From NCBI GenBank assembly GCA_015231265.1, contig JADGBX010000002.1, positions 4,174-68,173 of the forward strand: a stretch of DNA of 64,000 nucleotides. Direction: 5' to 3'. Below, one piece after another: positions 3,998-26,586 of the stretch (position 1 is the first letter of the stretch; each line of letters begins with the position of its first letter). The notes under the pieces were generated by a model. That model ran no database searches, had not been told where the DNA came from, and saw only the letters and a program-made list of their open reading frames with translations. The position numbers were made by a program, and so were the translations under genes. This stretch comes from Magnetococcales bacterium (GTDB taxonomy: Bacteria > Pseudomonadota > Magnetococcia > Magnetococcales > JADGBX01).

Positions 3998-5254
3998 TCA
4001 TGGTTGGTAGAACTCGTCCACATACCATTCAGCCGTATCGAGCAACTCCTGGTGAAGGTCGGGAGGAGCATAAGCCGGGGGTTGAAATCCCGGTTGCGGG
4101 TCGCGTGCGAATTGTGACCAAAAATCTTTGGGAAAGATCCCCTCGGCGACCCAACGATCATAGATCTCCGAGTGCGGCAGTGGATAGAGGATGTTGAAAA
4201 AGGGGATATCAACACCCAACTCTCGGATCATCTCCGGCAAAGCCTTGCGATATGCCGTCGTTTCTCCGGGAAATCCGATGATGAAATAACCCAGAGTCTG
4301 AATACCAACCTGCCGACAGATCGAGAAAAAACGACGCATCTGGTCGAGCGTGATGGACTTATTGACGAAGTGGAGCAGGTCGGGATCCAGCGTCTCTACA
4401 CCCACATGCAGCCGTTCACAACCCGCCTCCCGCAAGGCGGTAGCTGTTTCCAGGTCGATGTGCGCTCTTCCCCGCGCACTCCAGGTGATCGACAGATTGC
4501 GCTTCCGGATCTCATCACAGATTGCGACAACCCGGGACCGTTTGACATTGAAACAGTCATCCATCAAGTGAACCGTTGCAGCACCGTGATCCAGCGCATG
4601 AACCATCTCATCCACCACACGAACGGGACTCTTGAAGCGAAACCCCCGCTCCTGAGTATCGCAGAAGACACAGTGGAACGGACACCCCTTTGAGCTGTAC
4701 ATGGGAAACCGCAAACCGCTGTTTTTCAATAGAACTTTACTTGGATCACTGATCGCATAATCGTCGAGATCAAGAAGCTCCAACCTCGGCATGGGTAGGG
4801 TATCGAGATCGTCCACATGGTCTCTGAAAAGGCCATCGGGTGCGCCGCTGCTCAACCAGGCGTTGAAGCTCCTGTCGGCATCATGCTGAAAGATTGCATC
4901 GGCCCCTAACTGTCGAATTGCATCGGAAAAGTGGGTGGCATGAGGCCCTCCGACCACCTTCTTCGCCCTTTTGATACCAGAAAGCAGTCGTTTCATGGCG
5001 TATGACGTACCGATGGTCGCGGTCATCCCGACGACATCCGGATCCCACTCATCAATGACTGCAAGAGTTTCGTCGATGGAGAGTCCCATGGAAGCGCTGT
5101 CCAGAATCCTGACCTCATGCTGCGGGTCAATACCACTGGCGACTGCCAACACCCCCAACGGAATATAGCGCAGTCGGCCAACGGAGAAGTGCTCTGGCGT
5201 GGTGTAGTCTCTGGGTTCGCCCTCATTAGGCAGTGTTATCAACAAAACACGCAT
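3998..5254 (-). CDS. B12-binding domain radical SAM protein (class B)
   Basis: 418 aa. The N-terminal Rossmann-like cobalamin-domain pattern (MRVLLITLP...VVGMTATIG...GGPHATHF) is followed by the CxxxCxxC motif GCPFHCVFC. Its ATG overlaps the upstream gene's TGA by 1 nt (TGATG). Confidence 0.85.
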   Translation of the reverse strand: MRVLLITLPNEGEPRDYTTPEHFSVGRLRYIPLGVLAVASGIDPQHEVRILDSASMGLSIDETLAVIDEWDPDVVGMTATIGTSYAMKRLLSGIKRAKKVVGGPHATHFSDAIRQLGADAIFQHDADRSFNAWLSSGAPDGLFRDHVDDLDTLPMPRLELLDLDDYAISDPSKVLLKNSGLRFPMYSSKGCPFHCVFCDTQERGFRFKSPVRVVDEMVHALDHGAATVHLMDDCFNVKRSRVVAICDEIRKRNLSITWSARGRAHIDLETATALREAGCERLHVGVETLDPDLLHFVNKSITLDQMRRFFSICRQVGIQTLGYFIIGFPGETTAYRKALPEMIRELGVDIPFFNILYPLPHSEIYDRWVAEGIFPKDFWSQFARDPQPGFQPPAYAPPDLHQELLDTAEWYVDEFYQP

Positions 5255-6789
5255 CAGGAGGAACTGCCCGACTCTTCAATGATACTCTGCTCTTCCCGGG
5301 TCTTGACTTCATCTCCCTCCTCCCGCTCGTCTGCAACTTGATCGGGGAAGTAGACACCGACATTGCGACGTGTCCGTCTGCGAAACTCCTCCAACTCCTC
5401 AAGAGTCATCATGTTCATTCTGGCAAAGCGCTCGCGTTTCTCCTGTGTGGAGAAGTTGATGCGATCCCACTCAAAACAGCGTAGCATCTCAAGCTCACGG
5501 ACGGTGAAATGCTCCGTTTCAATAAAACCTTTGGCAAACCCCAGCGTATCATCACGATAGAAGTCGAAATCCTGCGGAAGATACCCCCCCTCGACTGCCG
5601 TCTGAAACAGTTCGGTTCCGGGAAACGGTGTGGCGATCGCGAACTTGATCTGGTCCACGTCCAGCTCTTCTGCAAACGCGCACGTCTCACGGATTTCCTG
5701 CCAAGTCTCCCCCGGGAAGCCGATGACGAAATCGGCATCCACCTCGATTCCCAACTCCCGGCACCACTGGGCCACCTGTTTGATCTTCTGCTTATTGCCG
5801 GGTTTTCTGATGATCTCGCGCAACACCCGCTCACTGCCCGACTCAGGAGAGACGATCACCTGATAACAGCCGGTCTCTTTCATCAGTTTGAGCAGATCGT
5901 AGTCGAGACTCCAGGCGGACTGGTTGAGATTCTTCCAGATCAGATCGTAGTTGCGCGCCTTCAGCCCCTCCAGAATCGCCACCACCCTGTTGCGATCGGC
6001 ATACATTTCGTCATCGGTAAAGATCAGCTCCTTGATACCGTAGCTCTGGACAAGCATATCGATCTCTTGCAGGACACTGTCGGCACTCCGCAAACGCACA
6101 CCCCGACCGCTAATCACCGGTGACGCGCAGAAACAGCACCTGAAACGACATCCCCGAGAGGTGAGAATCAACCCCACCGGTTGTCGTTTCGAGCCCAGAC
6201 CCACCGCCGACTTCTGCTCCGAACACATCACCTTCTGCCAGTTGAAGAGGGTATAGTCCGGCAGCGGCAACGCATCCAGATCTTCGATATACCCTTCAGG
6301 AGGCCGGATCACTACGCTGCCACCCACCCGGTATCCAATCCCGTCCATCTGCGAAAAATCGCGCTCGGGAGTCTGCAGAATGTCCAGGAACTTCGGCAGT
6401 CTCGCCTCCCCTTCTGAGAGGATGACATGGTCGATATTGATATCTTCCATCACCTTCTCAGGGAGTGTCGTAGCGTGCACGCCGCCCATGATGGTGATAA
6501 TTGCGGGATCGACTTCCTTGGCCAGTTGCGCCGCATGGTGCCCCTGCCGCCAGTACTCCAGAGACATATTGGTGATACCGACGATATCGGGTTGAAACGC
6601 TCGGATACGCTCCTTCACCTGATCACGGGTCAGATTGTCGATGTTGGCTTCAAGAATCTCCACCTCCAGTCCGTACTGCTGGAGAACCGGCGTCAACATG
6701 GGAACCGCAGGGGTAAACCACAGCCACTGTCTTTTTCCAAACCAGCGGGTATTGGGAACAAGAAACTGAAATTTGCGAATCGGTTTCAT
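5254..6789 (-). CDS. B12-binding domain radical SAM protein (class B)
   Basis: The ORF track runs to 6942. I place the start at the ATG at 6789 (MKPIRKFQFLVPN...), which removes the overlap with the upstream gene. Cobalamin-domain pattern (IVGITNM...GGVHATTL) plus GCRFRCCFC. Confidence 0.8.
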   Translation of the reverse strand: MKPIRKFQFLVPNTRWFGKRQWLWFTPAVPMLTPVLQQYGLEVEILEANIDNLTRDQVKERIRAFQPDIVGITNMSLEYWRQGHHAAQLAKEVDPAIITIMGGVHATTLPEKVMEDINIDHVILSEGEARLPKFLDILQTPERDFSQMDGIGYRVGGSVVIRPPEGYIEDLDALPLPDYTLFNWQKVMCSEQKSAVGLGSKRQPVGLILTSRGCRFRCCFCASPVISGRGVRLRSADSVLQEIDMLVQSYGIKELIFTDDEMYADRNRVVAILEGLKARNYDLIWKNLNQSAWSLDYDLLKLMKETGCYQVIVSPESGSERVLREIIRKPGNKQKIKQVAQWCRELGIEVDADFVIGFPGETWQEIRETCAFAEELDVDQIKFAIATPFPGTELFQTAVEGGYLPQDFDFYRDDTLGFAKGFIETEHFTVRELEMLRCFEWDRINFSTQEKRERFARMNMMTLEELEEFRRRTRRNVGVYFPDQVADEREEGDEVKTREEQSIIEESGSSS

Positions 6790-6883
6790 GTAACAGGACT
6801 CATGCGATTGGAAAACCGGATGGAGAGAGTGTTGAGTGCATGGTAGGGAGAAGACCGGGTTTTCGCAACGTTGAACCGGCATT

Positions 6884-8197
6884 TCAAGGCTGCTCTCCGA
6901 CTCCCATGAAGTCAAGAATCTTCGGGGTATTCGCATCGACATGGAGGTCGGAACGAGCCTCGATAACCCGCGTACTCAACGCCGACCAATCGATGCGCTC
7001 CAACACAGGCACCAGATTCTCCAGCTCGGATCGGGAGACGACGACACCGATCTCACGCTCCTGAACGAATCGGGCCATGAATCGGTACTCCTCACTGACC
7101 AGAACGGGCAGCCCGGCAGCCAGGTAGACGAACAGCTTGCTGGACATACACTCCTCAGTATGCGACCACCCCACTGCAAAATCATCATCAAAGAAGTTGG
7201 CCACAAGACCCAAGTGGTAGCGGCCGACAAGATGATCCAGAAGGTCAGGTAGAGGAACGCCGGGAAGAAACTTGAAGTGGGGATTGCCGTCCGCTTCTCG
7301 ATGATAGTCGGCAAATACCCGCTGCGATTCCGATGGGCTGTAATAGATGGGATGATGGATGGAGAAATCGACACCCTGCCGCCCGAATGATTGAATCATC
7401 GGCAAAAAGTTCATCACGCCGAAGATGCGTCTCTGCTCCCCCGGAGGTTTGATCTGTCCTGGATAGACCAAACGAAAAGGGCCTTCCGGCGGGATTGGTG
7501 CCGGTGTCCGGCTCTCTCTAAACCACGACTTGGGAGGGCACGGCATGACACAAAGATCAGGCGCTTCGGCCTTCTTGACGTGCTCTTCGACCCAAGGGCC
7601 ATCGCTTTTATGAAACAGACCATCAGATGCGGCTCTCACCTGCTCTTCACCATCCAGCATCCAGTGCATCTCTTCTCGCGAAAACACCCCCTCTTGCTCA
7701 AAGAGATCGAGCTGATCACCGATGAAGGGTGCCATCCAGTCGAAGATTTCGTGCCGAATTCTCAATTTTGGATTCGCTTCGGTGAGAAATGCGTTGAGAA
7801 ATATCCACTTGGCATGACACTGCAGATAGACAGGGAGGGCCGACAGTCGTTGAGCAATCTGCCACAACAGTGCTAAAGAGCTATCCAGTGTGAGTGCATG
7901 ATCATAAACCTGCTGAGGGGGGTCGGAGTGCAGATAGAGAGCATGGGTAGCGATTCCGGATTGGGACAGCCCATGGGCGACATACTCAATGCTGGGAAAG
8001 TTACCGCGATGAACCGCAACGAAGAGGACCACCTCACCCTTCTTTGCCGATGAGGTCAAGGCGTTGACGAACACCTCGGCCTGATCTGACATGGCCTGAC
8101 ACACATCCGATTTCCAGTGATCGGCAATAAACCGTCTCAGAGCAGTTCGGGTGGCTGGCCGACGACAAAACCCGAGCTGAAGGGCATCTGCATTCAT
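6884..8197 (-). CDS. hypothetical protein, glycosyltransferase-like C-terminal half
   Basis: 437 aa in the same operon as the radical SAM pair. The C-terminal region (SKLFVYLAAGLPVLVSEEY) resembles the GT-B nucleotide-sugar-binding half. The function is not secure. Confidence 0.45.
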   Translation of the reverse strand: MNADALQLGFCRRPATRTALRRFIADHWKSDVCQAMSDQAEVFVNALTSSAKKGEVVLFVAVHRGNFPSIEYVAHGLSQSGIATHALYLHSDPPQQVYDHALTLDSSLALLWQIAQRLSALPVYLQCHAKWIFLNAFLTEANPKLRIRHEIFDWMAPFIGDQLDLFEQEGVFSREEMHWMLDGEEQVRAASDGLFHKSDGPWVEEHVKKAEAPDLCVMPCPPKSWFRESRTPAPIPPEGPFRLVYPGQIKPPGEQRRIFGVMNFLPMIQSFGRQGVDFSIHHPIYYSPSESQRVFADYHREADGNPHFKFLPGVPLPDLLDHLVGRYHLGLVANFFDDDFAVGWSHTEECMSSKLFVYLAAGLPVLVSEEYRFMARFVQEREIGVVVSRSELENLVPVLERIDWSALSTRVIEARSDLHVDANTPKILDFMGVGEQP

Positions 8198-8224
8198 AGT
8201 GTCGACTCCCTGCTCACCATGCTT

Positions 8225-10225
8225 CTATGTTGATGAATGACCGGTCAACTCCTCCGACACGACGTTGATCATCCTCTCAGCGACTTTGGGATAGGTAAAC
8301 TGGTCCAGTGATTTGCGATACGCCCTTTCAGCTATCCTCTCCCGCTGTTCGGGATTGTCCAGATAGTAGTGCACTTTTTCGACAAGATCCATACCGTCAC
8401 GGTAGAGAATTACCTCGGAATCCCGCTCAAAGAAATCGGTCAGGCTGGTCAGATCGAACGCATGCGGCAGATCCCGCGAGAGCATGAAGGTGCGACTGCC
8501 GATGATCTCCAATGAGCGCATGTGGAAGGTGGTCCCCGGCGCGTTGAGGGCGATCTTCGCTCGATTGGTGAGTCGATTGAGTTCATCACCAAACGCTATC
8601 TGACCTCTAATGGCACTATCGATACCTGAAATTTGTGACCAATTCTTACCGTAGACATGAAGATCCACACCGGCTTTGACCAGATGTTCCACTGGCCGTG
8701 CCTTGATACGCGTGATGATTTCCCAAATAACGCGCGAACAGTACCCATTAAACAGATCAAGATAGTCAGGGTCTGTCGGCAGATTCACCCTCTGAAGAAG
8801 ATCACGTCCCAGATCATCCAGGGCTCCCGTTTCGAATTGAATCCGAGTAAGATCGAAACTGCTGAACCCGTCCAAGGTCTCCATAAACACTTGATAGAGA
8901 CGGAGCAATTGACTCACAGTAACCCTATCGGCTTCGAGCAGGTGCTTCTCGGGAATATAGAGGCGCATCGTCTCTCCAGCACGTATGCAGTTGCAGTTCT
9001 CACCCGGATCACAAAGATGAGAGACCACTACCACATCCAGATCTTTTTCAACATCTGAACGCGGCTGGATTACGTGGTGGTTGAAACCGATTGGGAGAAA
9101 GTGGGCCTCTTTATTCGATTCCTGAAACATCGGTCCTGACAGGCTACCATCCTCCAACCAAGCCTTGGCAAAACTAAAAACGATATCCTCTTTCAGAAGA
9201 CGTTTATCATCTGCCTGGGTAAGATTCGGCAGAAGATCCTGAATCCAACTTACCACGGGCAATCCGGGGGGGAACACACCCTTCCACTCCCAGCGCATGT
9301 GATCAATGATGATAATGAGATCGGGCTTGAAGGACTTCAACTGTTTGAAAGCATTAAAGGCATTGAAACCGCGATCATTTTCAATCAACAATTCAGTCTC
9401 ATGTCCAAGATCACGAACACCCTGTAACAGATCCTGCATGCAGTATTTAATAAAGGAGGAGAAGACCGACACGATGCCAAGCACCCGCAAGGGCCTGTCG
9501 GCATTCATCAGGGATGATTGGGTTTGCCATACTTCATAGCTATTCTCAGCGTAGTAGTCGTGCAGTTCTGCTTGGAGCTGTCGGGCCTCTTGATCGATTT
9601 CAGAGCCGATCCGTTCAATGACACTGCGTGTATATGCGACTGCCGACTCACCCCCCTGTGTACTGAATATTTTTGTCGGTTTGCGTGTATTACCCCGTTT
9701 CAAATGCGCTCTCAACATCGCTTCCCACTCTGGTCCGACAGCGAAATTGACACGCTGGGAAAAGAGAATCTCCCTCAAATCGAACAGATGCATGAAGAGG
9801 ATAAAGTGGTCTACCCGTTCTTCAACAATATAGAGTGAAATAAAAGCTTCCGGAAACTCATAGAACGGTTCGTCAGTCTTCCTGGCAATCGCTAAGATAA
9901 CCTCACCATTCTCAACCCCGATAATCAGAGGAACGAGCTCCGTATTGATATTGACCGTTACCGATTGATCAGCAATTTCCAGCCAGGTTGATTGATCCCC
10001 TTCACGACTGATCGTATGACCGTCGTGAAAAGTGGCACTATAGCCCTTTGTTCCTTGTAACGATTCAATCGTCAGAGGAGTGGAATCATAGTGGTCATTC
10101 ACGCATTGGAACAGTTTGGCATCAGCAATTCTCAACAACTGCAGGTTCTTCTGGAACGTGACATGCATCTCCGGGGGAGCTGTCGTCGAGCCTGTCTGCT
10201 TGAGAGTTGCACCCTTAAGCTTCAT
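8225..10225 (-). CDS. CgeB-like glycosyltransferase-family protein (paralog of 19561-21555)
   Basis: 666 aa. The C-terminal block (FHMRSLEIIGSRTFMLS...ILYRDGMDLVEKVHYYLDNPEQRERIAERAYRKSLDQFTY) is typical of the CgeB/DUF3880-type family. It aligns full length with the 664-aa ORF at 19561. Confidence 0.6.
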   Translation of the reverse strand: MKLKGATLKQTGSTTAPPEMHVTFQKNLQLLRIADAKLFQCVNDHYDSTPLTIESLQGTKGYSATFHDGHTISREGDQSTWLEIADQSVTVNINTELVPLIIGVENGEVILAIARKTDEPFYEFPEAFISLYIVEERVDHFILFMHLFDLREILFSQRVNFAVGPEWEAMLRAHLKRGNTRKPTKIFSTQGGESAVAYTRSVIERIGSEIDQEARQLQAELHDYYAENSYEVWQTQSSLMNADRPLRVLGIVSVFSSFIKYCMQDLLQGVRDLGHETELLIENDRGFNAFNAFKQLKSFKPDLIIIIDHMRWEWKGVFPPGLPVVSWIQDLLPNLTQADDKRLLKEDIVFSFAKAWLEDGSLSGPMFQESNKEAHFLPIGFNHHVIQPRSDVEKDLDVVVVSHLCDPGENCNCIRAGETMRLYIPEKHLLEADRVTVSQLLRLYQVFMETLDGFSSFDLTRIQFETGALDDLGRDLLQRVNLPTDPDYLDLFNGYCSRVIWEIITRIKARPVEHLVKAGVDLHVYGKNWSQISGIDSAIRGQIAFGDELNRLTNRAKIALNAPGTTFHMRSLEIIGSRTFMLSRDLPHAFDLTSLTDFFERDSEVILYRDGMDLVEKVHYYLDNPEQRERIAERAYRKSLDQFTYPKVAERMINVVSEELTGHSST

Positions 10226-10393
10226 GATGGTATTCCAAAGTCCGAGGCAGTGTGTGCAGATATCGTTACGGCGGTTTAAACACGCGTTACACGGTATTGA
10301 TTAAGTCTTCCAACAAGCACATGCAATTGACATGCCTGCATCTATTCAAAGGTGGATATCAACAGTGTTATTCAATATCGGTCGGAATGCCAC

Positions 10394-13989: not shown

Positions 13990-14172
13990 CCTGCTTAAGC
14001 CTTCCCTTGCGACTCATTGATTCACCCTGTCTCGGGACCGGAGCGGTCACTATTCTCAGATGAGCACACCATGGTAGAGTGAAGGCTTTATGATGATGCC
14101 CCACTGTACCATGAACGATTCATTCACGTGTCGGACGTATCGATCGTTGGAACCAGGATAGGAAGAGGGACC

Positions 14173-15848: not shown

Positions 15849-15859
15849 TCCTTCACGAG

Positions 15860-17059
15860 ATGAAAGGTGTAACAATGAGCGTTTCTCAATACGAGTATTA
15901 CCAGAAACTCAATTTTCATCCCGACAGCATGGCCGATCATCACGGTGAGGAATTTTCAAACTACCTCCGGATCCGCAAACATCTCTATCAGGATCTGCTG
16001 AACATCCCACTGGGGCTGTTGGCAGAAAAAAAGGTCCTGGATATCGGCTGTGGTGCCGGTGAAAGCTCTCTGTTCCTGGCCATGCATGGGGCGCAGTTGT
16101 CTCTGGTGGATGCCGATGAGAGCACCAATGCCCCTCTGGAAGCCCTGTTCCGCTCCTTCAATTTGACGGACAGCATCACTAAAAAGAGCTTTGTTCCTAT
16201 GGAGATCTACGAAGATGATCTCCGTTACGCTTTTATCACCGCGGAGGGCTTTCTATTTACCCTGACCAACCGAGATGAGCTGCTGCGAAAAATCTGCACT
16301 CTGTTACAACCTGGCGGCATTGCCTGCATATCATTCCCCGAGCGCATCGGTTCGTTTCTGGAGTTTCTCAAGAAAGCGATATTGTGGCGTGCCTATCAGC
16401 TGGCCGGTGTGGATGATCTCACCTCACCTGAGGCTGAAAAGATCGCCTGGAGGCTGTTTGAGCCCGCCTATCGTCGCTTGAATAATCCGAGACCCTTCAC
16501 CATTTGGTGGAAGGATTGCCTGATCAGCCCCTTCTTGACGTGGCAGCACTGCTGGGACTATCAAACGATCCTCTCCGTGATCGAACAGGAAGGGTGTGCG
16601 TTCTACTCATCCATTCCACGCATTTACGAACCGGATCATTTAAGTTGGTACAAACGTCTGGATAGCGATGAGACCACACAAGAGGCACGGTTGGCTGGAT
16701 TGGCCCGCAGGCGGTTGGATTTTCTTTATGGTGAACCGATCGACGTCGATACGACCATTTCCAGGATTGAAACCATCAACCAGGGTTTGGAAACGGTACT
16801 ACACCATCTCTCCCGCTATTTCCGTTCTTTGCAGGAGGATGTCCCGACTATCGCGTTCAAACCGATTGCTGAAATGATTAAGGAGGCAGGCGTCAACAGT
16901 GACTTGACCGACGAGATGGTCTCTTTCTTCGACGCACTTAAGTACAACAATCTTGACCAATTGATGGATCACTATCGTGCATGCAAGGAACTGAACACTC
17001 GATGGGGCTGCTCCCTGCACCACATCTGCTTCACTAAAGAGACAAGCGTGATTTCATAG
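15860..17059 (+). CDS. class I SAM-dependent methyltransferase
   Basis: 399 aa with motif I VLDIGCGAGESSLFLAMHGAQLSLVDAD. Confidence 0.75.
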   Translation: MKGVTMSVSQYEYYQKLNFHPDSMADHHGEEFSNYLRIRKHLYQDLLNIPLGLLAEKKVLDIGCGAGESSLFLAMHGAQLSLVDADESTNAPLEALFRSFNLTDSITKKSFVPMEIYEDDLRYAFITAEGFLFTLTNRDELLRKICTLLQPGGIACISFPERIGSFLEFLKKAILWRAYQLAGVDDLTSPEAEKIAWRLFEPAYRRLNNPRPFTIWWKDCLISPFLTWQHCWDYQTILSVIEQEGCAFYSSIPRIYEPDHLSWYKRLDSDETTQEARLAGLARRRLDFLYGEPIDVDTTISRIETINQGLETVLHHLSRYFRSLQEDVPTIAFKPIAEMIKEAGVNSDLTDEMVSFFDALKYNNLDQLMDHYRACKELNTRWGCSLHHICFTKETSVIS

Positions 17060-18193
17060 TTTGTTTATATCATTCATGATTTGGATCGCCCGATGTCGCC
17101 ATGTGTGGTTGGCGCGTATCTCCTCCATCGCATTCCGGCGTATCTCTGCGCAGTGATCGGGTCGATTTACGTAGGAACGAAACACCTCCGGAAACTCTTC
17201 CAGATGAAAACGGATGTAGTGACGATCATGTTCAAAATGGTCCTCCAGACCGCCGAAGAGTTCATTCTCCGGAATATCCCGATACATGATCAAGCCGCCG
17301 GATGACATGCAATCCATGGTACGGAAATGCATGCCAACCCCTTCATGCACATTGAAGCGGGAGGATTGATACACCCTTCTAATCTCTTCCGGGTCGGTGA
17401 GAAATTTCTCGTAATAGGCGCGATACTCCGGCCATTTAGCCCAATTCTCCGGCCCGTAGAGACGGATGGAGTCCGTCTCCTTCACAATCGTGTCCATGGT
17501 CTTCTGACGATTGCGAAAACGCACCACTCGACACCCGATATCGTAAAGAAGTGCGTCATCGTCGATCTTCAAGGAGGTTCCGGTCAGTTCTCGATAGATT
17601 CTATCCGCTTTGGTGAAGTAGTCGTCGTGTTTGAAAGACTCTTTCGAATAGTTATCCAGCTCTTTTCGATAGTGAGGCAGGAACTCGCCGAAGGTGTACA
17701 AGGCGTGACCGGCTTGATTCATGGGACGGCTCAACTCCGCCTCACTCCACGGCGCCGATATGTGACCGACAAAAGAGAGGGTGGACTCAAAGCGTCGTGA
17801 TCCTGATCGATAGGTCTCCGTACAGGCTCCGGGGCTGAGGAGACCAGAGGCCGTATCGTAGGGGAAATCCGTTACCCACGTTCCACAGAAGAAGTAGGTG
17901 ATGTCACTCCCTTTGAAATGGTCCATACTGCGACCATTGAAGTCGACGATCCAGGCAACATGCAGAATCTCTTTCTTGAGAAAGGGGATCTCGGACCGAG
18001 GCCGATTCATCTCAATGATCAGGTCCGGCTCATAGTTCCTCACCCACTTAGTCAGAGCCTCTTCGTCCAAGAGGGCAACATCACCATTGGTCTGAATTCC
18101 GAGTTGCTCGAAGCCTCGAATCATCTGCTTGAGTAACGCTTTGTAGAATGGTGTCGGGCTGGGCAAGAATATCGAAACACGTTGAATAGTCAT
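17054..18193 (-). CDS. CgeB-like glycosyltransferase-family protein (short form)
   Basis: The ORF runs to 18253. The ATG at 18193 gives MTIQRVSIFLPS. It aligns with the C-terminal two-thirds of the 665-aa paralogs (YEPDLIIEMN..., HFRTMDCMSSGGLIMYRD...). Confidence 0.55.
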   Translation of the reverse strand: MTIQRVSIFLPSPTPFYKALLKQMIRGFEQLGIQTNGDVALLDEEALTKWVRNYEPDLIIEMNRPRSEIPFLKKEILHVAWIVDFNGRSMDHFKGSDITYFFCGTWVTDFPYDTASGLLSPGACTETYRSGSRRFESTLSFVGHISAPWSEAELSRPMNQAGHALYTFGEFLPHYRKELDNYSKESFKHDDYFTKADRIYRELTGTSLKIDDDALLYDIGCRVVRFRNRQKTMDTIVKETDSIRLYGPENWAKWPEYRAYYEKFLTDPEEIRRVYQSSRFNVHEGVGMHFRTMDCMSSGGLIMYRDIPENELFGGLEDHFEHDRHYIRFHLEEFPEVFRSYVNRPDHCAEIRRNAMEEIRANHTWRHRAIQIMNDINKL

Positions 18194-18390
18194 AGACTCA
18201 AGGAAAAGAATGAACGTGGAGTAGTGCTGAAACCTACTGAGGCTACCGCACAATGCGGAAGACTACAATCACCGATGGCAGCAGACAGAGGAGGTGTGCT
18301 TGCACACGCTTCTTCTCTTCTGATACGCTACTTTCTGAATCTGGAGAAAAGCAACACTCTTGACCAGGGTATCTCACCTGTCGTGTACCG

Positions 18391-19251
18391 ATGATTCACA
18401 CCCCATTGAAACAGAATGATATATATATACATCCCATGACACACTCTTCTCAATTGCCCAACGCTACAATTGTCCATTTGACGGTTTTCAAATCCGGAAC
18501 AGTTCTATTCCGACGCATCATTGAGGATCTCACCGGTCTTCCCTGCTTTGAACCGGCTATTACGCCCGGAAAGGTGGACTATCAAGATGCTGATCAACTG
18601 CACTGCAAGGAGGGCCACTTCTATTCCTGGCATCTCTATCCAACGCCGGCGGTGAGAAAGATCATCATGGAGAGCGCCGCAAAACCAGTCATGTTATTGC
18701 GAAACATCTATGACTTACCCGTCTCCATGTACTATCACTTCGCAAAGAATATTGATGCTGAAATCGGGCGTGGACGCAATGTCGAGCACCATTTTTCGGA
18801 GATCTCCCGTCAGGAAGGTTTGGACCTGATCATCGACGGTTTCACCAAACCCGATTTCATCTGGCCCGGAATCGGCACCCATCTCCAGCACATGGAGATG
18901 ATGTTCACCCTGGCTGATGAACACCCCTCTTTCATAACAAGCTATGAACGATTGGTTTCCGAAAAACAGGGAGAGGTTGAGAGACTTGCCGACATGCTCG
19001 ACATCACCGTTGACTCTCAGACGCTCTCTTCCATAGTCGAAAACAGCCGTTTTGATGTCATGAAAGCAAAAGCCGTCAAAAACAACACTGCCTCACATTT
19101 CCGCAAAGGCACCCCCAAGAGCCACCTGACCGAATTAACGACGGACCAGATCGACCGCGTCAAGGCAATCATGCAGCAGCAGGCTCCCCGTCTTGAAGAG
19201 CTGGCACGACGGTTTGCGTTCCATGAAATTCTAGAGTGCGCCTCCGACTGA
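18391..19251 (+). CDS. sulfotransferase family protein
   Basis: 286 aa with a PAPS 5'-phosphate loop-like FKSGTVLF and a C-terminal FRKGTPKSHLTELT motif, both typical of sulfotransferases. Confidence 0.65.
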   Translation: MIHTPLKQNDIYIHPMTHSSQLPNATIVHLTVFKSGTVLFRRIIEDLTGLPCFEPAITPGKVDYQDADQLHCKEGHFYSWHLYPTPAVRKIIMESAAKPVMLLRNIYDLPVSMYYHFAKNIDAEIGRGRNVEHHFSEISRQEGLDLIIDGFTKPDFIWPGIGTHLQHMEMMFTLADEHPSFITSYERLVSEKQGEVERLADMLDITVDSQTLSSIVENSRFDVMKAKAVKNNTASHFRKGTPKSHLTELTTDQIDRVKAIMQQQAPRLEELARRFAFHEILECASD

Positions 19252-19560
19252 GAGCTGTTAGAGCTGTTAGAGAACAGAAGCCATGACTGTTGACGATTCT
19301 ACACACACCTCTCATCAGTTGAGGCATGACCGGGTGCTTTCATAGCGCACACCAACTACGGTTTCCGTGTGTTTGCATGTTCTTTGCATACACACCTGTA
19401 GATCCCATTATTATTCATGGTAAGCGGCTGATATCTTGACACCCTTTGCACCCGATTCTTTGAGAAGAGACTCTGGTGAACGATCCTGGACCAGCATACA
19501 GTCCAGAGCCGGCTGCCCTATCTCTTGACACCACTTTTCTCAGATTTCGGATAGATATTC

Positions 19561-21555
19561 ATGACCACTCAAAACCCACAAATCAAACGGATTGGTCAGG
19601 ATCACAACATCGTCTATCAACGAAATCTCCAGATCCTTCGCCTTCTCGATCCGCAACTTCATGCGCGCGTCGCCGCTGTACAACTGCCTAACTCTGTTGC
19701 TATTGAACCCGTTTTCGGGACCAATAATGCTGTTCAGAGTGTTCGGGTAACCATGTCCGACGGGCACCATTTCTACCCGTGCCGACCAGGCAATCTGAGC
19801 AAAGAGGATCAGGCGTTTTTTTCAAAGACGACAAGCATGACGGTTTTCTGTCTCATCGGTACGGAAAACGTCGACCTCTTCTTCTATCTTTTTGAACGCA
19901 GTATCGACATCGGTGAGCTTAAGCACCTCAAACAGGTGCCGTTCTATGTGTTAGAACCGGACATCAATGCCTTTGTCATCCTGCTCTGTCTGTATGACAT
20001 GCGCAAAATCTTCACCTCTTCCCGTGTGAAGTTCTTCATCGGCGAGAAGTGCATCAACGATTATCTCGATTTCCTTTCGATCTCGGATCGGCAGAAACCG
20101 GCCTACATCATGTCGCCAAACAGCAGGATAGAACTGAAACAGGGCGTCATTGACGGCATCACGGAGTTGCAGGACAGGCAGACGAAATCTTTAGAGAACC
20201 TCATGGAGAGTTGTGCACAACGCTACGACTCCCCTGAGCGACAGCTGGAGATCAAACAGGCGTTCCAGAATCAAGGGCGCCCGCTTCGCGCCATGTTCTT
20301 CACCTCCCGTTACACCTCGTTTCTACAATACGGAACAGCCAATCTGGCCAACGGGTTCAGCCTTATGGGGTGTGAGGTACAAGTCGTCAAGGAGACGGAC
20401 ACCCTCTCTGAATACAACATGCTCTTTATGTTGGAGAAAATTGACCAGTTCGATCCGGACCTGATCATGATGATCGACCACTTCCGTTGGGAGTACCCTC
20501 ATCTCCCACAATCGATACCTTTCGGAACATGGGTGCAGGATCTTCTTCCCCAGATGTTCCGTGACGATCAAGGTCCCCTTGGTCCCCACGATCATGTCTT
20601 CAGCTTCTCAAAAAAGTGGATTCGGACCAAACGGTTGAGCGGGCCAATGTTCGGAGACCGGCCAATCCACTATCTCCCGGTGGGTGTTGACACTGAGGTG
20701 ATCCGCCCTCTTCCGGACGTGAAGAAGGATATCGACGTTCTCTACGTCTCCAACCTACCTCTGTCGGACCATACACTCGATCCCTTTCGCAACAAGGATA
20801 CCTTGTACGAATACACCCTTTTCAAGAATGAGCGCGAAGCGTTGGACAACAATGCCATCACTGTTGAACAGATGGTAATACTCTACACGCTTATTGTTGA
20901 GGAACTGGAAAAAATCTCCTACCTTGAAGCGTTTGAACTGGAACACAATCTGGTGAGAAAACGGTTGTTTGCCAAGCAACTTCTGGAGTTGCTCGAGATT
21001 AAGGACGTGGAATCGTGTATGGGCCTTTTCGTGGATAACAACCAGACCCGTATTGGCTGGGATATCTTCCGAAAACTCAAACTCACCCCTGCCCGTCATC
21101 TCGCCGAACAAGGAATCAATATCCATATCTACGGCTCCAACTGGGAAACATTCCCTGAGATAGCCGACCACTGCCACGGAATCGTTCAGAACGGCGACCC
21201 CCTGAATCGACTCACCGCCCGCAGTCGCATCTGCATCCATAATTCAGGAACCACTCTGCACATGCGTTCCATGGAAATTCTCGGTGCTGGAGGATTTCTA
21301 ATGTGTAAACAGACAGATCCAACAATTGACAATACAGCTATCACCGATTTCTTCGAAGATGGTAAGGATATGGTGCTCTGGAATAATGAGCAGGAGTTAC
21401 TGGAACACGTTCGTCACTATCTGGACAACCCGGACGCTCGTGAACGCATCGCCCGGCAGGGGTTTGAGAGCTGCATGAAACAGTTCACCTACGACCGTCT
21501 TGCCCAACAGGTGCGTGAGACCATCCGCAAGGATCTTTCACAGCTGGAAGCGTAG
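19561..21555 (+). CDS. CgeB-like glycosyltransferase-family protein (paralog of 8225-10225)
   Basis: 664 aa. Blocks shared with 8225-10225 include NLQ(L/I)LR, FDPDLIMMIDHFRWEY, WVQDLLPQM, LHMRSMEILGAGGFLM and HVRHYLDNPDARERIARQGF. Confidence 0.6.
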   Translation: MTTQNPQIKRIGQDHNIVYQRNLQILRLLDPQLHARVAAVQLPNSVAIEPVFGTNNAVQSVRVTMSDGHHFYPCRPGNLSKEDQAFFSKTTSMTVFCLIGTENVDLFFYLFERSIDIGELKHLKQVPFYVLEPDINAFVILLCLYDMRKIFTSSRVKFFIGEKCINDYLDFLSISDRQKPAYIMSPNSRIELKQGVIDGITELQDRQTKSLENLMESCAQRYDSPERQLEIKQAFQNQGRPLRAMFFTSRYTSFLQYGTANLANGFSLMGCEVQVVKETDTLSEYNMLFMLEKIDQFDPDLIMMIDHFRWEYPHLPQSIPFGTWVQDLLPQMFRDDQGPLGPHDHVFSFSKKWIRTKRLSGPMFGDRPIHYLPVGVDTEVIRPLPDVKKDIDVLYVSNLPLSDHTLDPFRNKDTLYEYTLFKNEREALDNNAITVEQMVILYTLIVEELEKISYLEAFELEHNLVRKRLFAKQLLELLEIKDVESCMGLFVDNNQTRIGWDIFRKLKLTPARHLAEQGINIHIYGSNWETFPEIADHCHGIVQNGDPLNRLTARSRICIHNSGTTLHMRSMEILGAGGFLMCKQTDPTIDNTAITDFFEDGKDMVLWNNEQELLEHVRHYLDNPDARERIARQGFESCMKQFTYDRLAQQVRETIRKDLSQLEA

Positions 21556-21617
21556 AGATATTGCAACCTCCATGCATGCCATACCCCCTTCCAAAGATGA
21601 ACATCTCCAGTACACCC

Positions 21618-23576
21618 TCAGCCATCCCCATGGCAAACGGTTTCCGGAGGCTGATAGCACTCTGACCAGATAAGAGAGCGATCAACAGGAATGCCCACCC
21701 GCTGCAACCGCTGCCACATACCGACTGGATCGTGGCTCGGAAGAAGAAGGAAGCGGTTGTCCCTATACCTCTCCACGGCAGCATCATCTAACAGACTGAC
21801 TGAAACGTCGAAAAATTGACCGTTTTGACGATGTGGCCTGTCGTCCAGAACGGCACGAATCGTTAAACCACCAAGATCGATCCGCTTTGAAAAAATGGTG
21901 AGATAACGATCCATAGCGGGCATGACCACAACCGGCTCATCATCCAGCTTCCATGCATCCAATCGCTGTTGGAATCTCTCATAGAGCGCCTTGATGTGTG
22001 GCACGAACAGCGGTGAGAAATGCATCTTTCGTTGGCAGTGTGGACAGAGGATATTGATGCCGCGCACACCAAAAAAAGGCTGCCACGGATTGAGTTCCGG
22101 TGTTCTTCCTTCAGCAGGATACTGAACACGATAACTGTGCTGCTTACCACACGATGGACAGGAGATGAGCGCCGTGGACAACTGGTGATCAACGGACTGG
22201 AAATCGTGAAGAGTAGCTGGTCTTTTAGTGTGGTTGAGATCCGTTATCTCACGGAGCTTCAGATAGGTATCCTGACACTGTTCATCCGTCATCGTCGTCA
22301 TGTTGACGGGTGGTTGGGGTGTGGTCCATAACCAAGTAGCCCCATTGGAGATCTGCTGAGTGAATGCGATCGGGTCGGTGATCAGACCTTGTTGGCGACA
22401 GCTCTCATAGAGTGGCGTCCCCGGATAGGGTATGACTGCACTCCAGTCGATAAAATGGAAGGCGTTCCGCTCCTGAAACGCCAGACTCTCCGCCACCGTT
22501 TCCTCGGTCTCGGCTGGATCTCCAAAAAGGAAATTGGCTTGAATAGCAATATCGGCCTTCCGAGTTGCATGTAGCGCTTTTTCTATCTGTTCAGGCCGTA
22601 TCCGCTTGCGCATGCTCTCCAATACGGTGCGACTACCACTCTCGACGCCGTAACTGATCCATACACAACCACTCCGACGCATCAACCGCAGCAGGTCGGC
22701 ATCATCCGCCCCGTTCACCCGTAGCTGACATGTCCAGCGGATATCAGCCTTCTTCTCGATCAACGCTCGACAGAACTGGTCGATACGTTCTTTTTCATAG
22801 TCAAACAGTTCATCATAAATCGCAAAAAAACGGGCTCCATAACGCGCTTTCAAGTCCAGAATCTCAGCAACAACTCGTTTAATGTCCCGCTTTCTGTAGA
22901 CCTGACTCGTGGGATGGAAGCAGAAGGTGCAACGATATGGACAGGAACGACTGGCAGAGACCGGAATGGTGCGACCAAGATCATTGATGGTCAGGTGCGC
23001 GTCGAACCGGTCCTCCCCTTGCATGGCAACGAACTGCTCAATGCCGAACGCCTCCAAATCCGGTGAAGGCAACGCATTAAGGTCTTCAATCGCCTCCCGT
23101 TGTGGTGTTAAGTGCGTCGTCTCCCCTTGCCAATAGATAATTCCGGAGATCGCTGCAAGATCCGGTTGCGCGGCTTCGAGAGCAGCGACCAGCTCCCGCA
23201 TCGTTGCCTCCCCTTCACCGATCACACCGATATGTGGCCGCAGGTGGTTGAAAACGGCCTCAGGTTCGGCTGTGAGCAGACCACCTCCCAAAACACGAAT
23301 GATGTCAGTATTATACGCCTCAACAAGAGAGAAGATCTCTTGGATGGCATTCATGGTCACGGAGAGTCCACCACTCGCCACGAGAGCGATCTCTTCGGTT
23401 TCGAGTATTCGGCGGAGCGCCGGCATCCGTTCTTTCGCGTCGATATTATTGAGATTCAAGCAGATTACGCGATGACCATCCTCTTTCAAGCACGCGGCAA
23501 TGGATGCCATTCCCAAAGGAAAATAGCGGCTGTTCGCTGTGGCTGCATAACTGGGATTAACAAGCAGAGTGTTCAT
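21618..23576 (-). CDS. B12-binding domain radical SAM protein with ~250-aa C-terminal extension containing a Cys4 zinc-ribbon-like motif
   Basis: The ORF runs to 23777. The ATG at 23576 gives MNTLLVNPSY. It has a cobalamin-domain pattern, SCPYRCTFC, and downstream CPSCGK...CPHCQRK. Confidence 0.8.
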   Translation of the reverse strand: MNTLLVNPSYAATANSRYFPLGMASIAACLKEDGHRVICLNLNNIDAKERMPALRRILETEEIALVASGGLSVTMNAIQEIFSLVEAYNTDIIRVLGGGLLTAEPEAVFNHLRPHIGVIGEGEATMRELVAALEAAQPDLAAISGIIYWQGETTHLTPQREAIEDLNALPSPDLEAFGIEQFVAMQGEDRFDAHLTINDLGRTIPVSASRSCPYRCTFCFHPTSQVYRKRDIKRVVAEILDLKARYGARFFAIYDELFDYEKERIDQFCRALIEKKADIRWTCQLRVNGADDADLLRLMRRSGCVWISYGVESGSRTVLESMRKRIRPEQIEKALHATRKADIAIQANFLFGDPAETEETVAESLAFQERNAFHFIDWSAVIPYPGTPLYESCRQQGLITDPIAFTQQISNGATWLWTTPQPPVNMTTMTDEQCQDTYLKLREITDLNHTKRPATLHDFQSVDHQLSTALISCPSCGKQHSYRVQYPAEGRTPELNPWQPFFGVRGINILCPHCQRKMHFSPLFVPHIKALYERFQQRLDAWKLDDEPVVVMPAMDRYLTIFSKRIDLGGLTIRAVLDDRPHRQNGQFFDVSVSLLDDAAVERYRDNRFLLLPSHDPVGMWQRLQRVGIPVDRSLIWSECYQPPETVCHGDG

Positions 23577-23799
23577 GCAGAAGTCCATCGCCACGATTCG
23601 GTGGTCTTGATCAACCAAGCCAAGACAATTCTCCAGTTGCAGACGCCTTTTCCATCCCTTTAATTCAGCAGAGATTATCCCGATTGGTAAGCAACTACCA
23701 TGGGCTGCACCCAATGGATTCACCCTGCCAGGCTTTCCGAACAGACCTCTGTAGCAGCCACTTTCCAGTGGCTTCAATGAAGAAGACGCCCAGATAAAC

Positions 23800-23985
23800 T
23801 AGGGCGTGTCCTCAATGAGAACGAATCAGCGTTTGTGACTGAATATGCAGCAGGCAAGGCGTGAGGAGCGCGGTTTGGCACGGCCAAATGAGCGACAAAC
23901 AACGCAGCATGGTGCATTTTCAGGCTAAACCCGAAGGGCTGGCGGTACGCTAGCGCTGTTTCGGGCTCATTGAGGACACGCCCTA
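23800..23985 (+). repeat. 186-bp MITE-like palindromic element, copy A
   Basis: 20-bp perfect terminal inverted repeats TAGGGCGTGTCCTCAATGAG / CTCATTGAGGACACGCCCTA. It is intergenic and matches copy B at 169/186 positions in my hand alignment. Confidence 0.85.
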
Positions 23986-24114
23986 ATTACACTTTTCGAA
24001 TAACAGGCGTGATCACATCCCCATCCAGATCAGCTAAGAATATCACGACGAACACTCTCCTGTCGAAAGCGAGGAGAGCGGATTCTTGGAGTAGAATCAC
24101 ACGGCACTTCACAT

Positions 24115-25011
24115 CTATCGATACTTCGAAAGTCGAGCACGCAAGACAGTAAAGTTAACGGGTTCACCCGAACTCTCCTGAGCTTGAAGAATACGGAGGG
24201 TTCCTCGGCCACAAATCACCAGGGGTATATTATCTCGAATAGACCAGAATTTGCCGGGAGTTCGTTGTTCGAAGGTCATTTCGGGACCGGGTTCGACTCT
24301 ATTAAGTATAATCGTCCGCCCGTAGCATGCCGTTTTTGCCCCGGAATAGGGCGGGCCAAGAGCATTGACGAAGCGTGTTATGTATTGAGCATCCTGTTCC
24401 CAATCAACCCACATATCCTCTTCATTGCGCCAAATGGAGTAGGTCGCTTGGGTTTCATCTTGTTCCTGACCAACAAGAGGGTTGCCATTTGCAACGCAAT
24501 CGAAAACCTCTTTAGCGCAGGCACTATAAGCAGAGCGTAATGCCGTCAGAGCTTCCTGTAAGGTGATCGGGTAGGAGATGTCAACCAACGATTGCGCCAA
24601 GATCGGCCCTTGATCAGGCTCTTCGCTGGGGAGCAGAGCTGTGACTCCCAAGCAGGGTTCTTCATTCAGAAGCTGGGAAACCGTTGGAGAAAAACCGCGA
24701 TAACGTGGGAGCGGAGAATCATGAAAGATCACCAGGTTCTCAGTGGTAGGCAGTAAAAATTGCCAACCGACGACGAAACAGAGATCGTACCCTTTCAACT
24801 CCTGAAAGCTTGGCCTGTTCTTCATTTCCAACTGGAAACCGTACCTCTGTGACAAGCTGTTGATTCTCTCCAGATAATCGCTCCCTTCTCCCTTCTGACG
24901 ATAGGTGTACACCATGGTCGGCTGAAGAAACTCGATTGTATCTTCTAGAAAGTTTGCCCCTTTAGTCCCGCAAACCAATGCGCAAACTGTAAGGGGAGTG
25001 TTGAGGTTCAT
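24115..25011 (-). CDS. formyltransferase-like protein (N- and C-terminal Fmt-type domains)
   Basis: 298 aa with VIFHDSPLPRYRGFSP (HxSxLPxxRG-type) and DQGPILAQ. It looks AT-richer than the flanking genes. Confidence 0.7.
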   Translation of the reverse strand: MNLNTPLTVCALVCGTKGANFLEDTIEFLQPTMVYTYRQKGEGSDYLERINSLSQRYGFQLEMKNRPSFQELKGYDLCFVVGWQFLLPTTENLVIFHDSPLPRYRGFSPTVSQLLNEEPCLGVTALLPSEEPDQGPILAQSLVDISYPITLQEALTALRSAYSACAKEVFDCVANGNPLVGQEQDETQATYSIWRNEEDMWVDWEQDAQYITRFVNALGPPYSGAKTACYGRTIILNRVEPGPEMTFEQRTPGKFWSIRDNIPLVICGRGTLRILQAQESSGEPVNFTVLRARLSKYR

Positions 25012-25875
25012 CGCAGCATCTCCCTCCTACTTAAGATCATCCTGGAGTCATTACCAACGTGCAGGAGAGTTTTAGTTGATTGTGGTCACTATAGTCCAGC
25101 CACCACGCTTCAAGTGCGTGAAGGCTATGCTTCCAGCAAGACCAACACCATCTTCAAAGTGATACCCGGTTACCATAATTACATTCTTCACTCACACCTC
25201 TCCGTCATTTGAATATTTCGAAGTACAATGACGACTTGATCATCGAAGAAGAACGCCACCTCAACAAAACGACACGCCCTAAATGAGGAGCCTTTTTACT
25301 GGAATCCTTGGAGTAAGCAATGGCTGTCGAATCCTGAGAGATCAAAAAGAGCACATATTCACACTCAAACCTTGGATACTATTCTCTGGCCATGATTTCT
25401 GCAATATATTCAAAGAAAGTGACAGATTCTGCTGAGCTATTCCCTCATGTTCGTGCCTGAACAGGAAACAAGAAAGAGGTGAAGAGCGCAGCTTCGGTCT
25501 GAATGAGAGAATGCGGTCTAGAATCAGGTTGCCTGACGAGACACGACGCCATTACCGACGCTGGAATGAAATCAATGGTTCAACACAACACGTCGCTTGG
25601 AAGGGATTATGGGAAGTGGTAAAGTTGGCCCCGGATTGACCGGATGGACGCACTTGATCCAAAGGATCGCATCAACTCCAGCAGGAAACACTTGGACACG
25701 AACACCTCGTTTCACCAATATTCTCATATAGGTAGTAAACATTTATGAGAGTCTCTTCCCAGTTATTCTAGAACCGATAAACGGGTTTGAGATTGGCCGA
25801 CAACAAGGATGCCTGAAATCTGGGCGTCAGAAGAAACTCTGCTGTCTTGAAGAAGGATAATAGGTAGTCGCAACA

Positions 25876-26586
25876 ATGAAAAAATTAAAAAATTTGGCCA
25901 TTATTCCCATGCGAGGGGGGTCGAAACGGATTCCCAAGAAGAATATCAAACCGTTCTTCGGCAAACCCATTTTCCTCTACACCCTTGAGGAAGCAAAGAA
26001 GTGCAAACTCTTTGATGAGATTATGATCTCCACAGACTCGGAAGAGATCGCACAGCTCTGTAGAGATCATGACGGGAACATCCCCTTTATGCGTCCTCCG
26101 GAACTGGCTACCGACGAAGCGAGGCTGGGAGATGTTTGTGCTAATGTCATACAAACCTATGAAAATAAAGAGGTATATTTTGAGAACTTCTGCATTCTTT
26201 GGGCGACTGCACCGATGAGAACCGCCGAAGATATCAAGAATGCCTATCAGCTCCTGGATGAAAAGACGGAAGCTGTTGTTGGTGTCAGCGAATTTGATTA
26301 CCCACTTTTTTGCGCTCAGTATCTTGCACAAAGTGGTGAACTGGTCCCAGTCTTCCCCGATTTGTGCATGGCCCCTGCAAAAGAGCATCCTCAGGCCGTC
26401 GTGGATAACAGCTCGATGTGCTGGGTGAAAACGGCTGCCTTTAAAGAACAAGGAACATGGCTGCCAAAACGCTTGAAAGGTTACTCAATGCCGCGCTCTC
26501 GCTCCGTTGATATCGACACCCAACAACAGTGGGACCAAGCAGAGTTCTTCTTCAATAAGTTTCTTAAGGAACGAGATCGTATCTAG
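25876..26586 (+). CDS. acylneuraminate (nonulosonic acid) cytidylyltransferase family protein (NeuA/PseF/LegF-like)
   Basis: 236 aa with the N-terminal signature AIIPMRGGSKRIPKKNIK, then ISTDSEEI and RPPELATDEA. Confidence 0.8.
   Translation: MKKLKNLAIIPMRGGSKRIPKKNIKPFFGKPIFLYTLEEAKKCKLFDEIMISTDSEEIAQLCRDHDGNIPFMRPPELATDEARLGDVCANVIQTYENKEVYFENFCILWATAPMRTAEDIKNAYQLLDEKTEAVVGVSEFDYPLFCAQYLAQSGELVPVFPDLCMAPAKEHPQAVVDNSSMCWVKTAAFKEQGTWLPKRLKGYSMPRSRSVDIDTQQQWDQAEFFFNKFLKERDRI

Follow-up and report, generated by a model that had tools for sequence, protein, structure and literature searches.

An island of 15 genes at positions 3998-26586 of a 64-kb stretch of Magnetococcales DNA (64,000 nucleotides of contig JADGBX010000002.1, hereafter the window) combines glycosyltransferases with an unusually broad set of sugar-tailoring enzymes. 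We lean towards the view that this island encodes a cytoplasmic, carrier-lipid-independent system for protein O-glycosylation and glycan tailoring, whose substrate is most likely flagellin. Flagellin is favoured because the enzymes are soluble and come without an exporter, because the core transferases join a domain resembling the N-terminal domain of Maf to a GT-B glycosyltransferase, because some relatives of these transferases lie beside flagellar genes and because the family is accompanied by genes for nonulosonate sugars. The reading is built from gene content, folds, motifs and neighbourhoods, from which we infer every enzymatic step. A preliminary description of this DNA had listed the gene classes of the island, all of which we recovered at their coordinates from the open reading frame (ORF) listing and by Pfam and NCBIfam scans (Table 1). 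It had also proposed a decoration of protein glycans with the pilins of the adjacent locus as the substrate; the former idea is supported, the latter is not. The scans took in nearly all longer ORFs of the window. Genes of the island are grouped into several short operons, which lie on both strands, and the remainder of the window consists of a locus for a pilus resembling the MSHA type and of housekeeping genes.

The core of the proposed system is a pair of paralogous transferases of about 665 amino acids (aa), 30% identical across their full length (3e-106). Together with a shorter CgeB-like protein they match PF13524 with scores of 80.1, 78.4 and 61.1 bits (cut-off 25). In an AlphaFold model of the 666-aa paralog (AF2, with an alignment of 32 sequences from the fetched loci; pLDDT 88.2, pTM 0.84), residues ~245-666 are predicted to adopt a GT-B fold, whose best Foldseek matches are GT4-like enzymes (down to 2e-9), and the N-terminal ~230 residues are predicted to form a Rossmann-like unit of four strands, with a GxGxG segment and a conserved NLxxL...P motif. 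The N-domain of Maf has been described as a degenerate Rossmann-like fold of four parallel strands with no known function (PMC11339370), and the modelled N-domain of the long transferase fits this description. Maf_flag10_N (PF20157) is also the only Pfam family recurrently matched by N-domains of the family, in three of 35 full-length members and seven of 20 isolated N-domains (best 8.5e-7), and one relative exceeds its gathering cut-off (28.8 bits versus 23.5). The proposed Maf-N relation of the two long transferases of the window rests mainly on family-level homology. Neither paralog, nor any of the 35 family members, matched the catalytic model MAF_flag10 (PF01973) in Pfam scans, and tetratricopeptide repeats (TPR) were found in one of 35 relatives and in none of the long transferases of the window. 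Searches of PDB sequences with a family profile and an N-domain profile retrieved no relative and no Maf structure.

This family is large. A HMMER search with a profile of the two paralogs against 1.84 billion cluster representatives retrieved 6,972 proteins at E <= 1e-3 and 393 at E <= 1e-30, unlike word-index homology searches (with the 666-aa protein or a 12-member profile), which yielded one distant match only. Ten members were checked for the names given by their sources: these were at most 'glycosyltransferase', 'CgeB domain-containing' or 'hypothetical', and several members were nameless. We assembled about 60 related loci (designated L plus a number where needed), 40 from species genomes and 23 from metagenomes, of which ~20 are non-redundant. 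The relatives are found in Magnetococcales (11 metagenome-assembled genomes, MAGs), Ectothiorhodospiraceae, Chromatiales, methanotrophs, Desulfobacterales, Phycisphaerae and Tepidisphaerales; the closest of them agree with an origin of the window from an uncultured, magnetotactic member of the Magnetococcales.

Companion genes of the long transferase were counted by tblastn, clustering and Pfam, and are given here as genome loci plus metagenome loci. Those pointing to nonulosonates are a PseF-like cytidylyltransferase (12 + 7 loci, 19 in all), a PtmE-like CBS-nucleotidyltransferase (6 + 11, 17 in all), a DegT aminotransferase (9 + 5, 14 in all) and a NeuB-family synthase (5 + 3, 8 in all). Epimerase/dehydratase genes (15 + 10), short CgeB-like transferases (12 + 12), cobalamin (B12) radical S-adenosylmethionine (SAM) enzymes (13 + 7) and radical SAM/SPASM enzymes (10 + 11) recur as well. 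A homologue of the 259-aa formyltransferase of the window lies between PseG-like and NeuB genes in L047. In two gammaproteobacterial MAGs, a module of six genes is syntenic with the window and comprises a long transferase, the 292-aa protein, the sulfotransferase, a short CgeB-like transferase, the Gtf3-like protein and a relative of the 719-aa radical SAM enzyme. In the window itself, the cytidylyltransferase belongs to PF02348 (87 bits versus a cut-off of 22.6) and has NeuA as its best PDB match (9ftb, 2.9e-37), in agreement with its original assignment to a NeuA/PseF/LegF type. This enzyme supports a connection of the island with a CMP-activated sugar of the nonulosonate type, as do the NeuB, PtmE-like, DegT and PseF-like genes that recur beside the family.

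In Gammaproteobacteria, the long transferase is embedded in a recurrent cassette, seen in Methylomonas (L048, 2288-24998) and in L047, L042 and L012. It includes genes for radical SAM/SPASM, epimerase, SIS (GmhA-like), HldE-like kinase/nucleotidyltransferase, thiamine-dependent E1 alpha/beta, radical SAM, B12 radical SAM, DegT, carbamoyltransferase and methyltransferase proteins, and may build an unusual higher-carbon or branched sugar. In the Ectothiorhodospiraceae locus, a gene for an unannotated protein of ~474 aa (L042, 12107-13531, minus strand) lies between those for the transferase and flagellin. Proteins of 1,042-1,298 aa in other genomes (listed at L012 7811-11707, L026 8108-11236 and L009 9566-11083) carry it as an N-terminal fusion to the long transferase, which points to a functional partner; no homologue of it was found in the window.

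All 15 island proteins lack membrane or hydrophobic segments in a hydrophobicity scan, in which the membrane proteins of the pilus locus score clearly. Among the scanned ORFs of the window, Pfam gave no match to a Wzx, Wzy or ABC exporter, a flippase, a polymerase or an initiating transferase, nor to any carrier-lipid, ABC-2, Wza, Bac_transf or other membrane export component. Nine related loci annotated with Pfam (~150 kb) were likewise free of polysaccharide export genes. The preliminary description had already noted that no exporter, initiating phosphoglycosyltransferase or nonulosonate synthase is visible in the window, and its preference for protein-glycan decoration over a capsule or lipopolysaccharide locus gains support from these data. 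A non-protein glycoconjugate, such as a capsule-like polymer, a glycolipid or a secreted glycoside, could still be the product if the genes for its export and initiation lay elsewhere in the genome. The genes for the sugar backbone are clearly outside the window, so that other parts could be too, and many related loci are large sugar-synthesis cassettes (SIS, HldE-like, E1 alpha/beta, carbamoyltransferase). In addition, CgeB of Bacillus subtilis, the namesake of the family, is linked to a spore-surface polysaccharide. We nevertheless think such a product unlikely, given that none of the four predicted transferases is membrane-anchored and that export components are missing from the related loci as well as from the window.

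Four independent loci place the family beside flagellar genes. On an Ectothiorhodospiraceae contig, the long transferase lies 1.8 kb upstream of flagellin-flaG-fliD-fliS-fliT-fleQ. On a Chromatiales contig, the transferase lies ~7 kb downstream of flgJ-flgK-flgL, in a cassette that begins straight after flgL and continues with PseF-like, DegT and PseG-like genes, an N-formyltransferase (33% identical to that of the window) and NeuB. In Magnetococcus sp. DMHC-6, two flagellin genes lie ~8 kb away, and in the Magnetococcales MAG L026 the transferase gene is followed ~1.2 kb downstream by two flagellin genes. On our assumption that 1-2% of random genes have a flagellar gene within 10 kb, the chance of at least four such neighbours in ~60 loci is roughly 0.003-0.03. 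The adjacency in these four loci is therefore suggestive, not conclusive. Apart from flagellar genes, no recurrent structural-protein neighbour was found in the related loci.

Magnetococcales reportedly make up to ~15 heavily glycosylated flagellins and swim very fast with sheathed filament bundles. Magnetococcus massalia MO-1 expresses all of its 14 flagellins, each of them highly glycosylated, and builds the sheath of its filament bundle from a glycoprotein of >350 kDa (PMC7175107). The latter observation also lends some weight to the idea that the protein glycosylated in the cytoplasm is a different exported surface protein, be it a giant flagellar-sheath glycoprotein, an S-layer protein or a giant adhesin or autotransporter. 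Soluble enzymes without an exporter would fit such a substrate equally well, most related loci are not beside flagellar genes, and enzymes to which the Gtf3-like protein bears a resemblance act on serine-rich adhesins. However, no gene for such a substrate is present in the window or recurs in the related loci, the only recurrent structural neighbours are flagellar, and the N-domain appears related to that of Maf, a protein with no known role outside flagellin glycosylation. In our judgment, a surface protein other than flagellin is an unlikely substrate.

Several observations weigh against a system that acts on flagellin with a Maf-related core and a nonulosonate. The window encodes no flagellin homologue and no homologue of NeuB, DegT or dehydratases (tblastn), so that the synthase and the remaining pathway are not in the window, and matches to sigma-54 and sigma-28 consensus sequences do not rise above those in shuffled sequence. 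On the PseF model TIGR03584, the cytidylyltransferase scores 186.1 bits, under the curated cut-off of 205.7. The 664-aa paralog matches PF20157 weakly (E 0.045, 13.7 bits, profile positions 2-81) and far under the cut-off, and the 666-aa paralog has no direct match to the Pfam Maf N-domain. Flagellar adjacency is limited to four of ~60 related loci and to none of the 23 from metagenomes, and in many loci, including several large contigs, the neighbours are unrelated.

If flagellin is the substrate, glycosylation could proceed as follows. A nonulosonate-type sugar would be made by genes outside the window; the PseJ-like formyltransferase would N-formylate it at the amino-sugar stage and the PseF/NeuA-like enzyme would convert it to a CMP-sugar. 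The two ~665-aa paralogs would then put the sugar on Ser/Thr residues of unfolded flagellin before its export by the flagellar type III apparatus, and the short CgeB-like and Gtf3-like transferases would lengthen the glycan. Tailoring of either the donor or the protein-bound glycan would be carried out by the sulfotransferase with its 292-aa partner, the two methyltransferases, the three B12 radical SAM enzymes (of the C-methylation type) and the PhyH-like oxygenase. The TPR region of the 728-aa methyltransferase could dock on flagellin, as in FlmG and Maf-1. The sugar predicted in this way would be formylated, methylated and sulfated.

The original proposal, that the pilins of the adjacent MSHA-like type IV pilus are glycosylated, started from two observations that we can reproduce. 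The island directly adjoins the pilus locus (26586/26853), and the pilins at 38079-38786 and 38897-39814 are moderately rich in Ser and Thr (15-17% of residues versus 11.8% in 21 other window proteins), with enriched C-terminal stretches (11-12 of 30 residues). Nevertheless, pilus genes (T2SSE, T2SSF, MshM-like, secretin) were found in none of the ~60 related loci, in contrast to the flagellar genes of four loci, and the N-domain resembles that of Maf. In known systems, pilins receive their O-glycans from lipid-linked precursors on the periplasmic side, through oligosaccharyltransferases of the membrane. Here, all island enzymes are cytoplasmic and no Wzy_C-type pilin O-oligosaccharyltransferase was matched by Pfam among the scanned ORFs of the island and pilus locus, several pilus-locus ORFs being without any Pfam match. 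Moreover, one of three copies of a repeat resembling a miniature inverted-repeat transposable element (MITE) lies at the junction, so that the adjacency looks incidental and suggestive of a rearrangement boundary rather than an operon link. We consider pilins a highly improbable substrate.

The combination of features seen here has partial counterparts in several known systems. The CgeB/YkvP system of B. subtilis, which gives its name to PF13524, operates in the cytoplasm with no exporter and has a link to the synthesis of legionaminic acid. The C-terminal domains of the window proteins match this family (61-80 bits versus 25), whereas organism and substrate differ; to our knowledge, a Maf-N-like domain and tailoring enzymes are no part of the B. 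subtilis system. In the literature searched, flagellin nonulosonate transferases fall into two classes, Maf (Maf-N plus a GT-A-like core) and FlmG (TPR plus GT-B). Like the island described here, the Maf islands of Campylobacter, Helicobacter, Aeromonas, Shewanella and Magnetospirillum magneticum AMB-1 encode soluble cytoplasmic enzymes together with CMP-nonulosonate genes. The two systems also appear to share a related Rossmann-like N-domain (PF20157 in family members), and some relatives of the long transferases lie beside flagellin genes. In contrast, the Maf core is GT-A-like, whereas the long transferases have no MAF_flag10 match and a catalytic part of the CgeB-type GT-B; in addition, the island of the window is not beside flagellar genes. 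FlmG of Caulobacter crescentus and Brevundimonas subvibrioides, compared by description, is soluble and likewise combines an N-terminal non-catalytic domain with a C-terminal GT-B, but its N-terminal part is a TPR domain and not Maf-N-like. The GT-B domain of FlmG selects Pse or Leg, and genes of the pathway may be located apart from those for flagellin (PMC7591256; bioRxiv 10.1101/2022.03.25.485807). Finally, pilin O-glycosylation by PilO/TfpO or PglL resembles the present case only in genomic proximity to a type IV pilus locus; it differs in that the island has no match to an oligosaccharyltransferase family, no lipid-carrier genes were found and all enzymes are cytoplasmic.

It is tempting to suggest, although the proposal is a tentative one, that the ~665-aa proteins form a third class of flagellin glycosyltransferases, undescribed so far, with a Maf-type N-domain and a CgeB-type GT-B, spread over Magnetococcales, Gammaproteobacteria, Desulfobacterota and Planctomycetota. 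In the present organism they would equip flagellin with a nonulosonate-based glycan, which would then undergo sulfation, C-methylation by cobalamin radical SAM enzymes, N-formylation and hydroxylation. The island and its ~60 relatives point to a large family, maybe a third class beside Maf and FlmG. We could not find a description of the Maf-N-like plus GT-B architecture in the literature searched, where CgeB or Glyco_trans_1_2 together with flagellin also returned nothing relevant. The same literature held no report of a sulfated bacterial flagellin glycan, sulfated glycans on motility filaments being described there only in archaea; if the proposal is true, this would be the first such glycan in bacteria. 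The tailoring set, whose members include a conserved sulfotransferase pair, an oxygenase and three cobalamin radical SAM enzymes, would broaden the chemistry known from protein glycans of bacteria. A glycan that is strongly anionic and heavily tailored would be a plausible contributor to the mechanics of sheathed bundles, and might bear on the sliding of many filaments within the sheath of the Magnetococcales flagellar bundle. Cultured carriers exist, such as Methylomonas with a homologue of 1,665 aa, which makes the idea of a third class directly testable.

Table 1. Genes, operons and repeats of the island and its surroundings (window positions; a point marks features without strand).
Feature	Position	Strand	Evidence or remarks
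Radical SAM/SPASM enzyme, 363 aa, four unrelated genes left of the island	12..1103	+	PF04055 + PF13186
Operon: long transferase, Gtf3-like, two radical SAMs	10225->3998	-	
Class B (B12-binding) radical SAM, 418 aa, last gene of operon 10225->3998	3998..5254	-	PF02310 + PF04055
Class B radical SAM, listed 562 aa	5254..6942	-	PF02310 4.7e-19, PF04055 6e-24
Probable fourth glycosyltransferase, 437 aa, Gtf3-like C-terminal half	6884..8197	-	profile match to Gtf3
Core transferase paralog 1, 666 aa	8225..10225	-	PF13524 2e-22; Maf-N-like N-domain ~20-230 + CgeB-like GT-B ~245-666 (predicted)
CmcI/rhamnosyl-O-methyltransferase-like SAM methyltransferase, TPR + long C-terminal region, 728 aa	10352..12538	+	PF13578 6.5e-17, PF04989 5e-12, TPR_19 9e-7
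PhyH-like Fe(II)/2-oxoglutarate oxygenase, helical N-terminal half, 491 aa	12514..13989	-	PF05721 3e-5
Operon: 292-aa protein, formyltransferase, methyltransferase	14128->17059	+	
Conserved sulfotransferase partner, 292 aa	14128..15006	+	no Pfam/NCBIfam match
Sugar N-formyltransferase (PseJ/WbtJ-like), 259 aa	15069..15848	+	PF00551; NIHPSVLPYNRG + D147 intact
Class I SAM methyltransferase (Methyltransf_23/25), 399 aa	15860..17059	+	PF13489 1.5e-11, PF13649
Short CgeB-like GT-B transferase, 399 aa, without Maf-N-like domain	17054..18253	-	PF13524 1.5e-16
Operon: sulfotransferase, long transferase	18391->21555	+	
PAPS-type sulfotransferase, 286 aa	18391..19251	+	PF00685 1e-22; K34-S-G-T + R104-N motifs
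Core transferase paralog 2, 664 aa	19561..21555	+	PF13524 7e-22; architecture as paralog 1
Class B radical SAM, Cys-rich C-terminal extension, listed 719 aa	21618..23777	-	PF02310 + PF04055
MITE-like ~190-bp repeat, copy 1	23800..23990	.	terminal inverted repeats TAGGGCGTGTCCTCAATGAG ... CTCATTGAGGACACGCCCTA
Fmt/ArnA-like two-domain formyltransferase-fold protein, 298 aa	24115..25011	-	PF02911 8e-12, PF00551 9.5e-7
CMP-nonulosonate synthetase (PseF/NeuA/LegF-like cytidylyltransferase), 236 aa	25876..26586	+	PF02348 1.9e-24
MITE-like repeat, copy 2, at pilus-locus junction	26640..26830	.	alignment of three copies
MITE-like repeat, copy 3	60300-60490	.	alignment of three copies

The remaining enzymes of the island were classified with profiles and structures from the PDB. 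Of the glycosyltransferase-like proteins, three are CgeB-like by PF13524, as first described. The fourth, of 437 aa, has no Pfam match and a weak NCBIfam match (PRK09814), and its family profile retrieves Gtf3 glucosyltransferases from the PDB (9hu9/9htx at 4e-4; 3qkw/3rhz at 0.06); syntenic homologues occur in L016 and L018. Homologues of the short CgeB-like transferase (32-40% identical) adjoin the long transferase in 12 + 12 related loci. Two formyltransferases had been announced. The 259-aa protein has the full catalytic set (N110/H112/D147) and is matched by the WbtJ-type enzyme 4nv1 (4e-18) and by PseJ 6ci2 (3.5e-17). It shares the Asn-His-Asp set with the PseJ-like sugar N-formyltransferases of known structure, which it matches at ~1e-17, but it stays under all NCBIfam equivalog cut-offs, including that for dTDP-4-amino-4,6-dideoxyglucose formyltransferase (1.3e-21). 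The 298-aa protein has the fold and D133, but Phe replaces the catalytic Asn (FHDSPLPRYRG), which makes formyl transfer by this protein uncertain.

Sulfation would depend mainly on the 286-aa protein, which scores 81.3 bits on Sulfotransfer_1 (cut-off 22), carries both motifs for binding of the sulfate donor PAPS (5'-PSB and 3'-PB; KSGT and RN) and matches cytosolic SULT structures in the PDB. This is the one clear sulfotransferase of the two first suggested. The other, the 292-aa protein, is possibly a second protein with a sulfotransferase fold, to judge from weak profile matches to CurM/OLS sulfotransferase domains in the PDB (E 0.15-0.46). It matches no family, and an hhalign comparison of the 292-aa family with that of the 286-aa sulfotransferase was negative (probability 0.2%). 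Its homologues (41-56% identical) adjoin or lie near the sulfotransferase gene in five to six other genomes (L002, L004, L016, L018 and L019).

The three class B radical SAM enzymes are real, each with both domains and an intact CX3CX2C motif (at residue 191 in the 418-aa protein), and none reaches an NCBIfam equivalog cut-off. The true start of the 562-aa enzyme is probably downstream of a 59-nt overlap with the preceding gene, and a homologue with 40% identity follows straight after the core transferase in L005/L046. The 719-aa enzyme has homologues (39-47% identical) in L002, L016 and L018, where they share a module with the sulfotransferase pair. At residues ~560-600, the latter enzyme has two CxxC pairs resembling a zinc ribbon (CPSCGKQH ... 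CPHCQRKMH), and a further domain of ~120 aa. The radical SAM/SPASM gene on the left of the island is possibly a detached member of the same system: in 9 + 11 related loci, a homologue of its product (28-40% identity) is encoded no further than 10 kb from the core transferase, and in L042, L047 and L048 directly beside it.

The two SAM methyltransferases of the first inventory are assigned by Pfam to Methyltransf_24/CmcI and Methyltransf_23/25, respectively. Its PhyH-type dioxygenase is also recovered, with a weak score (24.8 bits versus a cut-off of 22) and with the residues of the metal/2-oxoglutarate motif in place (H368-x-D370, H454 and R472). The genes for the 728-aa methyltransferase and the 491-aa oxygenase are convergent, and their 3' ends overlap by 25 nt. 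Their products have a C-terminal CDLRFQS motif in common, for which a DNA inverted repeat was ruled out as the source, and the BLASTP match between the two proteins is not significant (E 0.16). The C-terminal part of the 728-aa protein may therefore be a degenerate PhyH-like domain, in which HxD lies at 555-557 and no distal His was seen.

The right-hand 2.6 kb of the island, comprising the Fmt-like gene, an 865-bp gap and the cytidylyltransferase gene, has a lower G+C content (0.47). The gap (25011-25876), which separates divergent genes, has the lowest G+C of the island; it contains no ORF >56 aa and gave no blastx match to the related loci and no Rfam match. Copies 1 and 2 of the MITE-like repeat, 2.8 kb apart, flank this low-G+C segment, and the three copies are about 90-95% identical. 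Elsewhere in the window, a tRNA gene lies at 49782-49865 (minus strand) and a 6S RNA gene (92 bits; 61325-61503, minus strand) adjoins the gene for 5-formyltetrahydrofolate cyclo-ligase.

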